This document shows positions 24,628 through 39,497 of a DNA stretch of 64,000 nucleotides, in pieces. How positions within the stretch are numbered: position 1 is the stretch's first letter; each line of letters starts with the position of its first letter. This stretch comes from a virus. A model generated the notes under the pieces. The model was given only the letters and a program-made list of their open reading frames with translations, did no database searches and had not been told where the DNA came from. The translations under genes and the position numbers were made by a program. The stretch spans positions 1 through 64,000 of IMG/VR virus record IMGVR_UViG_3300017971_007886, one strand, 5' to 3'.

Positions 24628-25362
24628 ATGGCAGAAGTAGAGAAGACGGTCAAACGTCTGGAGAAGATGGCAGAAGCCCTGTTGGAGATCGCGGAGGCTC
24701 TACCCGGCTTGGTGGGCACCAAGTCTTCAAAGTCAAAGTCCAAGGCCAAGCCCGCCCCAGAGCCCGAGCCCGATGAGGACGAGGAGCTGGAAGAGGAAGA
24801 GGTCGAGGAGGAAGTCGAAGAGGAAGAGGAGGCAGAAGAGGAAGAAAGCCCTTCCGACGACGGCGACCTGGATTCGATGAACCGCATCCAGTTGTTGCCG
24901 CTCGCCAAGGAACTCGGAATCGACAGCCGTGGCAAGAAGGGGGACGAGCTGCGGGAACTCATCCGAGAAGCCCAGGGCGACGGGGGTACACGCAAGAAGA
25001 CTACCAAAAAGAAGGGTACCACCAAGAAGGCCGCCGCTTCCAAAGGCGCGTCCAAGAAGTCCCGGCCAGCCAAGTCCGGGCTCTCCTCGAAGAAGCCCGC
25101 AAAAGGTGGGCTAGGAGGCGCGAAGAAGAAAGGTACCGGGAAGCCGAAGCTCTCGGTGAGACTGGAGACATTCATCAGCAACAACTACGCCGACTTCGCT
25201 GAAATCCTCGATGGGGAGCGCGACGAGGAGACGGGCGTGTTGGGCTGCCAGGGTGTCTGCACCAAATGTCCGAACCCCGAAGAGTACGACACCGCCGCAG
25301 AGCAGGTCAAAGCCTGCTACGCCACGGTCAAGGACAGAATCGAGGCAGAGGAAGACGAGTAG
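24628..25362 (+). CDS. acidic/basic protein with Rho-N-like domain and C-terminal Cys cluster
   Basis: Poly-E tract, LDSMNRIQLLPLAKELGI..KKGDELRELI, K-rich tract, CQGVCTKC. Confidence 0.65.
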   Translation: MAEVEKTVKRLEKMAEALLEIAEALPGLVGTKSSKSKSKAKPAPEPEPDEDEELEEEEVEEEVEEEEEAEEEESPSDDGDLDSMNRIQLLPLAKELGIDSRGKKGDELRELIREAQGDGGTRKKTTKKKGTTKKAAASKGASKKSRPAKSGLSSKKPAKGGLGGAKKKGTGKPKLSVRLETFISNNYADFAEILDGERDEETGVLGCQGVCTKCPNPEEYDTAAEQVKACYATVKDRIEAEEDE

Positions 25363-25391
25363 CGCACCTTCCCGCAAGCGACATCTTCAGA

Positions 25392-25436
25392 ACGCGAGGG
25401 CACTCCGGGCGGCTGGCCTGGGGTGCCTTTTCGCGT
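25392..25436 (+). terminator. hairpin / probable terminator
   Basis: GCGAGGGGCACTCCGGG pairs with CCTGGGGTGCCTTTTCGC. Confidence 0.45.
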
Positions 25437-25459
25437 CTCAGGGAGGCTGCGCCGATCCT

Positions 25460-25920
25460 ACCGGCCCCCGATTCTACCGGCCCCCAAGGGTACCCCGGCC
25501 CCCGGTCCTACCCCGGCCCCCGGCCCCCGGCCCGGTACCTTGCCAGGGGTACCCCTGGCCCCCTTGCCATACGTTGCCCTACAATCGGTTGCCCTAGGTA
25601 CCCTTGCCACCGATTGCCATACGTTGCCAGGGGTACCCTTGCCCTACATTGCCCTAGGTACCCTTGCCACCGATTGCCATACGTTGCCCTAGGTGTATTG
25701 TACCCCGGCCCGGTACCCCGGCCCGGTACCCTTACAATACGTTGCCATACATTGCCACCGATTGCCCTAGGTACCCCGGCCCGGTAGGGTACCGGTACCC
25801 TACCCTAGGTTGCCATACGTTGCCCTAGGTGTATGGTGAAAAGAAAAGTAACCAAGGGGCCGGGGTACTGTGTAGGTACCTCAGAGGTACCCAAAACGAT
25901 CGTTAGGGGTACCGATTGAT
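25460..25920. repeat. low-complexity repeat array (GGTACC, CCCGG, CCTAGG, phased TTGCC)
   Basis: Identical 40-mer at 25589-25628 and 25649-25688; TTGCC recurs at mostly 10-bp spacing. Confidence 0.9.
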
Positions 25921-25931
25921 CCGATTAGGGA

Positions 25932-25961
25932 TTGACAATCGAAGATCGTTGATCTCACAAT
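25932..25961 (+). promoter_or_regulatory. sigma70-like promoter TTGACA-N18-CACAAT
   Basis: Perfect -35 upstream of the H1-like gene. Confidence 0.5.
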
Positions 25962-26030
25962 GGGATTGAACCATTAACAGGCCCCTAGGGGCCAAAGAAC
26001 AGGGGCCAAGCCCCGAGGAGAACTAGAACC

Positions 26031-26585
26031 ATGGCGAGACAAGCGAAAACCACAACCAAGGCCACAACCAAGAAAGCCCCCAAGGCCCCCAAGGGTACCC
26101 CGAAAAAACCGGCCCCCAAGGCCCCCAAGGGTACCGCCAAGGCCAAGAAAGCCCCCAAGGGTACCGCCAAGGCCAAGAAAGCCCCCAAGGGTACCGCCAA
26201 GGCCAAGGCCAGCGACAAGGCCAGCGACAAGGCCCCCAAGGCGGTATCTACCCCGCGATTGAATCAAACCGCGATCAAAATGGGGGGCCGGTATCACATG
26301 ACGCGATCCTACCATTTTGAAGATCCCAAGGCCCGATCCGAGTTTATCGCGAGACTCGAAGCGGGAGACTTTGATCTCGCGATCCAGTATCTTGAGGTAG
26401 GCCCCTTTGTGGTCCTAGTCAACGTGGAAGCCGAGCCCTTGCCGATCAACGTGTCCGACGATCCCAAGGTGAAGGAAGCGCGGGAAGCGTATAAGGCGGA
26501 AATGGCCAAGGCCAGGGAAGCCCTGAAGGCCAAGGTTGCCGAAATCAAGGCCACCTATCGCGCCAAGGCCAAGGCCAGCGAATAG
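26031..26585 (+). CDS. histone-H1-like Lys/Ala/Pro-rich DNA-binding protein
   Basis: GAGGAG RBS; KAPKGTAKAK x3 (30-bp tandem repeats) followed by a small folded domain and a basic helix. Confidence 0.7.
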   Translation: MARQAKTTTKATTKKAPKAPKGTPKKPAPKAPKGTAKAKKAPKGTAKAKKAPKGTAKAKASDKASDKAPKAVSTPRLNQTAIKMGGRYHMTRSYHFEDPKARSEFIARLEAGDFDLAIQYLEVGPFVVLVNVEAEPLPINVSDDPKVKEAREAYKAEMAKAREALKAKVAEIKATYRAKAKASE

Positions 26586-26975
26586 CCAAGGCCCCCCGGC
26601 CCCCAAGGGTACCCCGGCCCGGTCCTACCCCGGCCCGAGGTACCCCGGCCCGGTCCTACCATGCCCGATCAACGTCCTACCCCTTATCCCTACCGGCCCG
26701 AGGTACCCCGGCCCCCCAAGGGTACCCCGGCCCCCGGTAGGGGTATCCCTACCCCGGCCCGGTACCTTGGCCCCTTGGCCTTGTGTCTGGCCTTGGTAGG
26801 GATACCCCTACCCCTACCGGCCCCCGGCCCGGTCCTACCCCGGCCCGAGGTACCCCGGCCCGGTCCTACCTTGGCCCCTTGCCAAGGGTACCCCGGCCCC
26901 CGGCCCGGTCCTAGTCTACTGGCCCCCGGCCCCCGGCCCGGTACCCCGGCCCGAGGTACAAGGCCCCCGGCCCGA
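26586..26975. repeat. low-complexity repeat array (CCCCGGCCC / GGTACC / GGTCCTACC)
   Basis: Repeated GGTACCCCGGCCC and GGTCCTACCCCGGCCC units shared with 25480-25530. Confidence 0.9.
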
Positions 26976-27080
26976 TTTGTTGATCGTGCCGATCTATTAT
27001 ATAGGTGTGATCCCTACTTTTGCCCACATTGCCAGGGTACCGGGCCGGTACCTGGCACTAACCAAAAAGGAGAGCTGGAA

Positions 27081-27257
27081 ATGAAGTGTAGCAAGTGTGG
27101 ATATGCGGACCCCGAAGGGAGGGCAGTTGACTGCCCGAACTGCGGAGCCCCAGCAGAGGTTGACGAGTGCCCAGAGTGTGGATCTCTTGGCAGTCAGGTG
27201 TGTTCCCCGGACTGTTCTATTCAGCGCAACCCAGACAAGGAGAGCGACGATGAGTAG
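27081..27257 (+). CDS. small Zn-ribbon protein
   Basis: AAGGAG RBS; CSKC, CPNC, CPEC. Confidence 0.55.
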   Translation: MKCSKCGYADPEGRAVDCPNCGAPAEVDECPECGSLGSQVCSPDCSIQRNPDKESDDE

Positions 27258-37421: not shown

Positions 37422-39497
37422 ATGACGCGAATCTACCTTGCCGGTGCGGAGAGTGGTCCGCTCTCAGATGAGCTAGAAGAGAACAACGTCAAGCACATCC
37501 TCTACTCCTATTTCTGGTTGTCGAAGAAGGATCGGGAGAGGGTGATGGTCGAACGCATAAAACGAGGTCGGGAGAATGGTATCAAATACCTGCTCGACTC
37601 GGGTGCGTTCACCTACCTCGATGCCCAACAGGCGGGCTCGCGACTCCCCTTCAACGTCTACAAGAAGAGGTACTTTGACTTCATTGCCAAGCACGGTGAG
37701 TTGTTCGAGGCGTGCGCGGAACTCGATGTCGAAGGTGCTGAGATAGACGGGATGGGTACAATCTCCCTCGACCAGGTGTGGCACTGGCGACAACAGATGT
37801 TCGAGGCTAACCCGAAAGCCACCATCATGCCCGTCTGGCACTTCGGTACTCGTACCCAAGAAGAGTGGAACACGCTTTGTGAAGATCCTCTCGTCACCTA
37901 CCTTGGAATCGGAAGTACCCACAGCGGCGCAGTCTTCAATCAAGAAGGAGTATTCCACAGGCTCATTGCGAAGGCCCATGCCCACGGCAAGCGGGTACAC
38001 GGAATGGCCGCGACCAAGGTGAAGACGCAGTTGAAGAAACTCAAGTTCGACAGCGTAGACAGCGCCTCCTGGCTATCTGCCCAGAAGTTCGGTACGACGT
38101 TCATCTTCAAAAACGGGCAATGGATAGTTCTGGACAAGTACAAGAAGAACCAACGCAGAATCCATCGACGCCACTTCACCAAGATCGGCGTGGACTACCA
38201 AAAACTCGAAGCAGACAAGAGTAGCGAATTACGCCATGCAGCGATATTGGCGTGGAGAGACCTGGGAGAGTGGCTGATGAAGAAACGGGCCAAGATGCAC
38301 CAAGACCTGGAAGACCAAATTGCGGCTACACCTCAAGTAGACCCAGAAGTGCCACAGGAGAAGAAAGTGCCAGCTACGAAGAAGGCCAAGAAGTCCAAAA
38401 ACAAGGTACCAATCAAGGTACCCGCAAAGGTACTTTCAGGGGTACCGGCACCCCAAAAACCACCTCGCGGGAAGGCAAAATCGAGTGGTGAAGTCTTCAA
38501 AATACCGTGTCCCAGTTTTGGACAAAAAGCAGACGACGGTGCGGTAAAAAGGGGCCGAAGGGGTCGAAAACGCACATTTGCGCGGACCCCAATTACGACC
38601 AGCTCGCGGGATGGAAAACAGACTCCCAAGGTCAACGATAAAGCCACTTCTATGGATAAGGGAGACCCTACAGAAAAGGCCCCTGATAAAGGTACCCCGT
38701 ATCTCGAAGAGGTACCCCAACCTACGCTACCCCAGGAGCCAGTGTCTCAGGACGCACTTGCTACGGTAGAGCAGCCAGATAGCACACTTCCTACCTGGAA
38801 ACGCCCTGATTATCTACACAAGACCGAGAAGCAGAGGTCGCTACTCCATGATCTACCACAACTGAAGTGTGGGCTGTGCTCCATAGGTACTGATTGCCCG
38901 TCCTATGATGAGTCACTACAACAGTGTGCCTTTGCTGAAAGGCTCAATGCGTTTCCAGTACGTGATGCGGACAATCTACTGGGTGCTATGGAGTACATTG
39001 TAGATGTCAACAAGTCGCGGCTATGGAAACTACTTCTCATGGAGAACATGATCGAAGGCGGTATGCCAAGCGAACGTGCTACGCAACTTTCTGAGATTGT
39101 ACTGAACCAGCTCGAACGGCTCAGAGAACAAAGAACCATGATGGAAGGCGCTGCTGTGAAAGTCAATTCTGGACCCGGTATTCTAAGCTCCATATTTGGG
39201 GTCTCTGGAAGGGGGTCTGTGGGGGGTACGGCAGTACAGGTAAATATACAGAACGCCCCAGCTCGCGGCGCAGATGTACGTGATGATAATCCTGCCAATA
39301 GTGGGATTGTAGTGGAAGCACAGACAGTACCCCATAATGTACCTACAGAAGAGGGTACCCCTACTGCGGCTACTGATGCGCAAGTAGTAGAAGCTGAAAC
39401 AGAGAATGAAGTACCTAGTTCTGGCGAATCAGGTAGCAAAGCTGACACAGGTACCACAGGAGAGGACGCCCCCTCGGGCAAGGGGGTGGGGGGTTAA
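37422..39497 (+). CDS. TGT/DpdA-like transglycosylase domain fused via a disordered linker to a Cys4 helical domain (possible TerS)
   Basis: IYLAG, LLDSGAFT, ELDV, PVWH, VHGM, DSVDSASW; C-terminal CGLC-x5-CPSY-x6-C and GILSSIFG. Confidence 0.7.
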   Translation: MTRIYLAGAESGPLSDELEENNVKHILYSYFWLSKKDRERVMVERIKRGRENGIKYLLDSGAFTYLDAQQAGSRLPFNVYKKRYFDFIAKHGELFEACAELDVEGAEIDGMGTISLDQVWHWRQQMFEANPKATIMPVWHFGTRTQEEWNTLCEDPLVTYLGIGSTHSGAVFNQEGVFHRLIAKAHAHGKRVHGMAATKVKTQLKKLKFDSVDSASWLSAQKFGTTFIFKNGQWIVLDKYKKNQRRIHRRHFTKIGVDYQKLEADKSSELRHAAILAWRDLGEWLMKKRAKMHQDLEDQIAATPQVDPEVPQEKKVPATKKAKKSKNKVPIKVPAKVLSGVPAPQKPPRGKAKSSGEVFKIPCPSFGQKADDGAVKRGRRGRKRTFARTPITTSSRDGKQTPKVNDKATSMDKGDPTEKAPDKGTPYLEEVPQPTLPQEPVSQDALATVEQPDSTLPTWKRPDYLHKTEKQRSLLHDLPQLKCGLCSIGTDCPSYDESLQQCAFAERLNAFPVRDADNLLGAMEYIVDVNKSRLWKLLLMENMIEGGMPSERATQLSEIVLNQLERLREQRTMMEGAAVKVNSGPGILSSIFGVSGRGSVGGTAVQVNIQNAPARGADVRDDNPANSGIVVEAQTVPHNVPTEEGTPTAATDAQVVEAETENEVPSSGESGSKADTGTTGEDAPSGKGVGG

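Follow-up and report, generated by a model that had tools for sequence, protein, structure and literature searches.

At the concatemer junction of bacteriophage T7 the word CCTAAAG, which we recounted, occurs 13 times in one orientation and not once on the other strand, its copies lying mostly 13-29 bp apart and covering the 160-bp terminal repeat together with both flanks; the host promoters A1-A3 and gene 0.3 then follow. Small genes standing beside direct-repeat arrays that their own products bind are found in the iteron-bearing replicons of P1 and F, in ParR/parC of R1 and in the omega system of pSM19035, and some of these iteron or centromere arrays are helically phased and overlap a promoter. 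Phages also have histone-like proteins, such as p6 of phi29 and TF1 of SPO1 (the latter binding hydroxymethyluracil DNA), with preferred sites at genome ends. Here we compare with these systems a 1.6-kb island of restricted vocabulary, enclosing one gene for a lysine-rich protein of 184 amino acids (aa), in the virus record IMGVR_UViG_3300017971_007886; the window that we analysed is the first 64 kb (64,000 nucleotides) of this single record of 92,966 bases (57% G+C). The island is probably a boundary region on which proteins dock, and perhaps also the place of a genome end.

The island and its word arrays

The island extends from 25452 to 27057 and is the only strongly low-complexity region of the whole record: across 25301-27200 the number of distinct 6-mers per 500 bp is 213-326, against a genome mean of 444 (standard deviation, SD, 25), and no other region comes near such values. 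The restricted vocabulary noticed in a preliminary description of this DNA, made by reading the sequence, is therefore real and unique in the record. Bases lying within 8-mers that are repeated in the island make up about 96-97% of its arms and 87% of the part coding for the protein's tail, as compared with 29% in control windows. The island starts 14 bp past a terminator hairpin and leaves about 10 bp up to the ribosome site that serves the gene at 27081, and its two flanks, which have 61% and 75% G+C and whose plus strand is 48-52% C, are the largest true non-coding gaps of the genome.

A few words, mostly running in one direction, compose these arms. TACC(CC)GGCCC occurs 19 times on the plus strand and three times reversed, always inside the island and nowhere else in the genome, at irregular spacings of mostly 13-21 bp; TACCCCGGCCC is matched exactly at 16 places in the island (15 on the plus strand and one on the minus), the sole other match in the window carrying one mismatch, and the shuffle expectation for the TACCCCGGCCC/TACC(CC)GGCCC word is 0.96. 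TTGCC[A/C] is found 20 times on the plus strand and never on the minus, and 17 of its copies form one array spaced by 10 or 15 bp, in which four or five unit types build a higher-order repeat of about 60 bp. Counted in the island and in the rest of the window, respectively, CCGGCCC occurs 28 and four times, CCTAGG seven and nine, TTGCC 22 and 77, and GGTACC 28 and 80; the island further has 16 GATC and no GGCAA. The full GGTACC hexamer surrounds 28 of the 31 GTAC cores in the island versus 123 of 723 outside, and four dyads are built of it (25543-25558, 25886-25913, 26736-26812 and 27030-27057). Seven of the nine G-quadruplex-type motifs of the genome lie here, all on the minus strand, the left array carrying one such motif. 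Where the island is not repetitive (634 bases), TTC is missing, against 10 expected (p = 4e-5), and GATC occurs 15 times against 3.4 expected (4.4-fold; p = 3e-6). DnaA and sigma-54 readings of TTGCC were rejected by eye. Searches of INPHARED, IMG/VR and the JGI metagenomes found no close relative of the island, nor of the 184-aa protein and its neighbours, and an 18-nt word of the arrays gave only scattered chance matches in high-GC prokaryote genomes, the one inspected lying inside a helicase-like gene.

Dense repeats are prone to mis-assembly, and the copy number of one 30-bp unit (87 nt of exact repeat) varies between assemblies of this DNA. However, that the island should be an artefact of short-read metagenome assembly is scarcely credible: the same protein is found on four contigs, up to 94.7-94.8 kb, in both ENA and JGI assemblies, the longest repeat pairs besides the 87-nt tandem array are of 60-66 nt and imperfect, and the gene has a homologue elsewhere.

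What, then, could such a structure be for? The reading with the most indirect support, coming from the short-repeat relatives of the terminase, the gene order of the phage LuckySocke and the word arrays of T7, is that the island acts in cis as a boundary in a genome transcribed one way only, forming the terminal or concatemer-junction region together with the early leader of a phage with short direct terminal repeats, its arrays being docking platforms; we advance it tentatively, as the reading that we prefer. The transcription map stops before the island and restarts after it (terminator at 25390-25438, promoter-like sites at 25932 and 26972), and one-orientation arrays of short words flank its central segment, as expected of a T7-type junction. 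Transcription of the preceding block meets the one strong terminator of the genome, and the gap up to the next gene is filled by the one-orientation words, the four GGTACC dyads and the lysine-rich gene behind the best host-type promoter, a second promoter-like element standing before the array of small genes downstream. Either the packaging machinery or the embedded protein, or both of them, could dock on the word arrays; the ends might be cut somewhere within the island; and the island end would enter the cell first, so that the putative DNA-binding protein would be made at once, GGTACC presumably being the word that is read.

Table 1. Features of the island and its borders, with positions in the window.
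Feature	Position	Strand	Details
Intrinsic terminator hairpin	25390..25438	+	-36.9 kcal/mol, z -5.15; U-run on 3' side
Left array: TACC(CC)GGCCC x4 at 16-18 bp, CCGGCCC x2, then CCAGGGGTACCCCTGG	25452..25560	+	52% C
TTGCC[A/C] array, 17 copies	25540..25837	+	10/15-bp spacing
Perfect 16-bp palindrome CCAGGGGTACCCCTGG	25543-25558		read from sequence
Operator-like palindrome GGTACCC...CGATCG...GGGGTACC	25886..25913	.	-17.8 kcal/mol, z -4.8; about 20 bp upstream of -35 box
Sigma-70-like promoter TTGACA-18-CACAAT	25932..25961	+	10/12 matches
Ribosome site GAGGAG	26015-26020	+	upstream of 184-aa gene
184-aa orphan gene	26031..26585	+	disordered tail coded by 26031-26250
Exact 30-bp tandem units x2.9 (KKAPKGTAKA)	26121-26207	+	within tail-coding part
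Right array: 12 TACC(CC)GGCCC, all on plus strand	26586..26975	+	75% G+C
77-nt inverted repeat, 24-nt arms 92% complementary	26736..26812	.	-56.8 kcal/mol, z -6.4; centre of right array
Variant of GACCGATTTGAC promoter family (CCCGATTTGTT...TATTATATA)	26972..27006	+	putative, by comparison with copies at 687, 6760, 24263 and 90825
Hairpin GGTACC-GGGCC-GGTACC	27030..27057	.	-18.7 kcal/mol, z -3.3; directly before ribosome site of next gene
Zinc ribbon protein gene	27081-27257		first gene past island

The island had been placed between the end of the replication module, marked by a hairpin, and an array of early-type genes. The hairpin exists (25390-25438, z -5.2) and, to judge from its sequence, closes the upstream transcription block, no second strong intergenic terminator having been found in the 93-kb record; that block is not the end of the replication module, since the genes directly upstream code for QueD, QueE, FolE and an acidic protein, and the replication genes proper stop near 14.6 kb. 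Past the terminator (table 1), the TTGCC array contains three copies of TACCCCGGCCC (at 25701, 25714 and 25772) and two 28-nt copies of one segment, 25674-25701 and 25810-25837, which are 96% identical and resemble weak promoters. The promoter at 25932 is the only intergenic sigma-70-like match of at least 10/12 in the whole record. Within the right array, the inverted repeat encloses a patch of reversed CCTTGG words. The promoter-like element at 26972-27006 was not detected by a consensus promoter scan and has a GATC-N5-GATC pair in its spacer. The family to which it is assigned, GACCGATTTGAC(A/T)-N15-18-TAnnnT, is represented at 687, 6760, 24263 and 90825, with variants at 25930 and 26973; its spacer often holds paired GATC, and it is restricted to the non-structural half of the genome.

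Palindrome avoidance and the surplus of GGTACC

The vocabulary of the island had been explained in the preliminary description either by a leader purged of the target words of restriction or by saturation with modifiable sites. For the former idea there is a precedent in the restriction-site-free leading region of Autographiviridae (Murciavirus, PMC12455610). Here, however, the absent-word count shows that the purge is genome-wide: 43 of the 64 palindromic hexamers are wholly absent outside the island, although a Markov model predicts as many as 58 occurrences of one of them (CTCGAG), and the purged ones have z-scores of -4 to -9 against a shuffle of synonymous codons within genes, four-base palindromes not being purged. 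Nor is the island any cleaner, as it holds one of the two CGATCG of the genome and the only TATATA, so that a purged leader is wrong as stated; the palindromes that the island favours (GGTACC, CCTAGG and GATC) are those accepted or preferred in the genome at large. Among the 11 hexamer palindromes that are clearly retained no two share a central tetramer, for which a hand calculation gives a chance of about 0.02. As for modifiable sites, the saturation with GGTACC stands, but no DNA methyltransferase family is present in the record, and the selection of GGTAC(C) extends to the whole genome.

This last point deserves to be quantified. By the same synonymous shuffle, coding DNA would contain 48±5 GGTACC but has 117 (z +12.9), the excess extending to all three frames, and it has 684 GTAC against 448 expected (z +15); in the window GGTACC occurs 108 times against 12 expected from dinucleotide shuffles. 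When hexamers are paired with their reverse complements and ranked by enrichment in the genome, GGTAC or GTACC is present in every one of the top seven; AGTACT, CGTACG and TGTACA have been removed. In the island the density of GGTACC peaks 13-fold. Hence GGTAC(C) is positively selected at the DNA level throughout the genome, with the island as its peak, which a docking or identity word would explain better than a decoy would. The same word appears in the coding DNA of a DpdA fusion linker (38400-38450), where four GGTAC at an exact spacing of 12 bp are translated into (K/Q/R)GT units, suggesting that it is placed wherever the protein tolerates it.

Besides QueD, QueE and FolE the record encodes this DpdA-type transglycosylase, and from the four together the phage DNA would probably carry 7-deazaguanine. 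The motifs published for DpdA are GA and GGC; we found no simple rule tying the tolerated palindromes to a target context of 7-deazaguanine. If the modified base replaces the G residues concerned, the quadruplexes mentioned above could not form. This bears upon another interpretation, modelled on the two-step transfer of T5 DNA, in which the island would act as an injection pause or translocation barrier between a first-transferred segment and the remainder of the genome. A largely non-coding stretch of 1.6 kb at a module boundary, rich in repeats and palindromes and bearing seven of nine quadruplex-type motifs on one strand, is what such a barrier might look like; yet nothing points to a two-step transfer, and the relatives of the terminase carry short repeats rather than T5-like ones of 10 kb, so that we regard this interpretation as very unlikely.

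A bolder idea takes the surplus of GGTACC as a self-mark of the phage DNA, read by a phage factor and nucleated at the island, where the lysine-rich protein is encoded behind the strongest host-type promoter and its tail and the binding sites would form one overlapping code; incoming DNA would then be coated or marked from the island outward, as a counter-defence or as a packaging signal. We hold it to be improbable. The wider context is more striking than the island itself: 43 of 64 hexamer palindromes are removed, and still GGTAC(C) is enriched, even in disordered protein linkers. The island offers a compact substrate of 1.6 kb for seeking whatever reads GGTACC.

The embedded gene and its product

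The constraint on vocabulary had been said to extend into the embedded gene, and its codons bear this out with statistical significance: Phe is written TTT in four of four cases (18% in the genome; p = 0.0012), Tyr is TAT in four of five (20%; p = 0.007) and Ala is GCC or GCG in all 37 (72%; p = 1.5e-5). To these can be added Glu, absent from the preliminary description, which is GAA in nine of 12 cases (25%; p = 0.0004). Codons of Phe, Tyr and Glu ending in A or T reach 81% versus 24±11%, and the codon use of the gene is the most deviant among 133 genes, about 5 SD from the mean.

This deviation raises a question: Could the island be a recently acquired, or selfishly expanding, cassette of little function for the phage, consisting of a foreign gene with its promoter between repeats grown by slippage or microhomology duplication? 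The distance in codon use would agree with a foreign origin, as would array words that the rest of the genome lacks. The two arms repeat each other in direct orientation, some stretches of 50 nt in the right and left arrays being 84% identical, and the protein has two alleles, of 174 and 184 aa, which are one 30-bp unit apart, whether this reflects a real polymorphism or a collapse of repeats. Against these points, the island conforms to the same palindrome rules as the rest of the genome and shares its preference for GGTACC, fits exactly between the terminator and the next ribosome site, and has promoters resembling the genome's own family, and its strict strand purity, with 10/15-bp phasing over 290 bp, would be hard to obtain by neutral slippage. 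A cassette of this kind is therefore improbable in our opinion.

The protein itself has no match in Pfam (E<=0.01), PHROG or PDB by sequence and profile searches; the ESM Atlas and structure searches were uninformative, with fold matches of Z<6. AlphaFold predicts with low to moderate confidence a disordered N-terminal tail rich in K, A, P and T, a beta-beta-alpha-beta-beta unit and a long helix. Its likeness to linker histone H1, whose globular domain is a winged helix, lies in the composition of the tail only, the predicted beta-beta-alpha-beta-beta unit plus helix having no clear structural match. Among 1.84 billion representatives searched with HMMER, the sole homologue is P0004, a protein of 169 aa (40% identity, E 1.5e-9) encoded on a 763-bp ENA contig, and none was found in phage records; a profile search added no further one. 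The KGTAK motif is repeated in the tail of P0004 too, and this conservation indicates that the 184-aa protein is real and the motif old. The codons of KGT(A)K in the tail are written AAG-GGT-ACC, and CCCCCAAGGGTACC and related 14-18-mers are common to the coding tail and both arms.

In functional terms, early expression of the gene is plausible, because it stands behind the only intergenic promoter of the genome with at least 10/12 matches and has a GAGGAG ribosome site, as read from the DNA. A search of the record for a polymerase of the T7 RNA polymerase type gave no match, but its control was equally silent. A protective role of the protein, which had been proposed together with its early expression, is pure inference.

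The vocabulary shared by gene and arrays is accounted for by an explanation that dispenses with a genome end: The island would be an internal nucleoprotein module, in which the lysine-rich protein, perhaps with a partner, binds the arrays and dyads, regulates its own gene and gates the next operon, and may spread from there over the GGTAC(C) sites of the whole genome, in the manner of a centromere-like or silencer-nucleation site. We rate it as somewhat unlikely, even if several observations favour it. The gene lies in the densest cluster of the most over-represented word of the genome, its promoter and the 5' end of the following gene both carry GGTACC-armed dyads, coding tail and arrays have 14-18-nt words in common (for example, CCCCCAAGGGTACC), the KGTAK tail is kept in P0004, and the DpdA linker has its four GGTAC-written (K/Q/R)GT units at 12 bp. 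On the other hand, the commonest array words, TACCCCGGCCC and TTGCC, differ from the genome-wide word, and the former is confined to the island; the protein has no recognizable DNA-binding fold; no ParA (AAA_31) partition ATPase is present in the record, actin-like and tubulin-like families being outside that search; and a single genome allows no support from covariation. The 184-aa protein has no similarity to the acidic protein encoded upstream. A module of protein and binding sites is compatible with the terminal reading, and explains both the shared vocabulary and the dyads at the two promoters.

Genome organization and comparison with known systems

The record belongs to a myovirus, with an estimated completeness of 98% (CheckV). 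Its structural genes include those for terminase, portal, major head and tail sheath proteins, and its replication-type genes, across the whole record, code for DnaC-like and DnaB-like proteins, a primase, PolA, a UvsX-like protein and DNA ligase. All 133 genes called (with a crude caller of our own, whole record) are on the plus strand. Family searches of the record found no integrase, resolvase, ParA or DNA methyltransferase; tRNAs are absent from it, and Rfam gave one sub-threshold match only. IMG/VR labels the entry, which is trimmed and whose last base closes a stop codon, as a provirus, but this label is doubtful given the missing families and tRNAs, the co-orientation of the genes and a gene set of lytic type. 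At third codon positions the GC skew (GC3) falls into two blocks, a negative one over the structural genes at 44-88 kb and a positive one that begins at about 90 kb, passes through 0 and reaches to about 42 kb; these blocks could be caused by replication or by a difference in expression class. At 1066-1167, inside the gene upstream of that for the DnaC-like loader, two 19-nt direct repeats bracket a perfect 13-nt inverted repeat, which makes this site a candidate origin in the initiator slot (808-1668), so far as its layout can tell.

Would the island instead be the origin, built like the P1 and F replicons with one set of iterons on either side of a gene? Direct-repeat arrays do stand on both sides of a small gene, GATC is 4.4-fold enriched in the unique parts and the island lies within the non-structural half of the genome. 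Nevertheless, an AT-rich unwinding element is lacking, the flanks being 61% and 75% G+C and the longest AT patch, near 26995, having about 14 nt; the embedded protein matches no Rep family in Pfam; the initiator slot upstream of the DnaC- and DnaB-like genes has the repeat-and-dyad structure of its own just described; and the GC3 skew has its switch points around 42-44 kb and 88-92 kb, leaving the island inside the positive block, although this is a weak test in a co-oriented genome. Taking these together, we judge an iteron-type origin at the island to be distinctly improbable. From the iteron and centromere arrays of P1, F and similar systems the island differs in several ways: there is neither an AT-rich element, nor a Rep-like or ribbon-helix-helix match, nor a partner ATPase of the ParA family, and the island has about 40 sites instead of the usual 4-12.

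Returning to the reading of the island as a terminal and early-leader region, the closest terminases are those of the Streptomyces phages BRock and LuckySocke, with 33-35% identity over 88-91% of the length of the large subunit. In their records the two ends repeat each other exactly over a short stretch, of 221 and 344 bp respectively, whereas the record of BCD7 is circular and thus uninformative on ends. The gene order of LuckySocke runs from one end through small genes, terminase, structural genes and replication genes to the other end; by collinearity, the ends of the present genome would fall at the island. Both Streptomyces phages have about 54% G+C despite their high-GC hosts, and LuckySocke has a milder surplus of GTAC (430 vs 277) and lacks 14 palindromic hexamers. 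By analogy there is a weak hint that the present phage may have an actinobacterial host.

This reading has to be weighed against a series of contrary points. No mapped DNA end places a terminus in the island, through which the contig runs uninterrupted, and the record, as a trimmed entry labelled provirus, has ends of its own that are uninformative. The terminase identity is only about 35%, and the ends of BRock and LuckySocke have neither dense word arrays nor a GGTACC surplus, so that dense arrays do not characterize this clade of terminases. It would be unusual in short-repeat phages for the junction to contain a complete gene with a promoter of its own, and DNA binding by the product of the embedded gene is only inferred. 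The interpretation given in the preliminary description is in sum partly supported, its proposal of a genome end being plausible. If the island is the terminal or leader region, the T7-style design, in which word arrays surround the ends, would extend to a large myovirus whose DNA is modified, and would provide a sequence signature for locating ends in metagenomic phage genomes.

Two further comparisons concern the protein and the word, respectively. With p6 of phi29 and TF1 of SPO1 the island would share a small protein of DNA-binding type (its binding here being putative), a modified phage DNA, and sites clustered near early promoters or ends; the 184-aa protein, however, has no relation to either in sequence or fold, and the modification here would be 7-deazaguanine. 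GGTACC, for its part, resembles Chi, uptake sequences and the sites of SlmA and Noc in being over-represented as a possible identity word, but unlike these is concentrated 13-fold in one island.

The nearest parallel is the T7 junction, from which the present locus differs in several respects: the island has 1.6 kb rather than about 0.45 kb, comprises two or three word families, is very G+C-rich and contains a whole gene, and it belongs to a myovirus with unmapped ends and a terminase not related to the T7 enzyme. Common to both are arrays of one-orientation words on both sides of a central segment, with short and irregular spacing, followed by host-type promoters and by a first gene that may be protective, in genomes where all genes point the same way.

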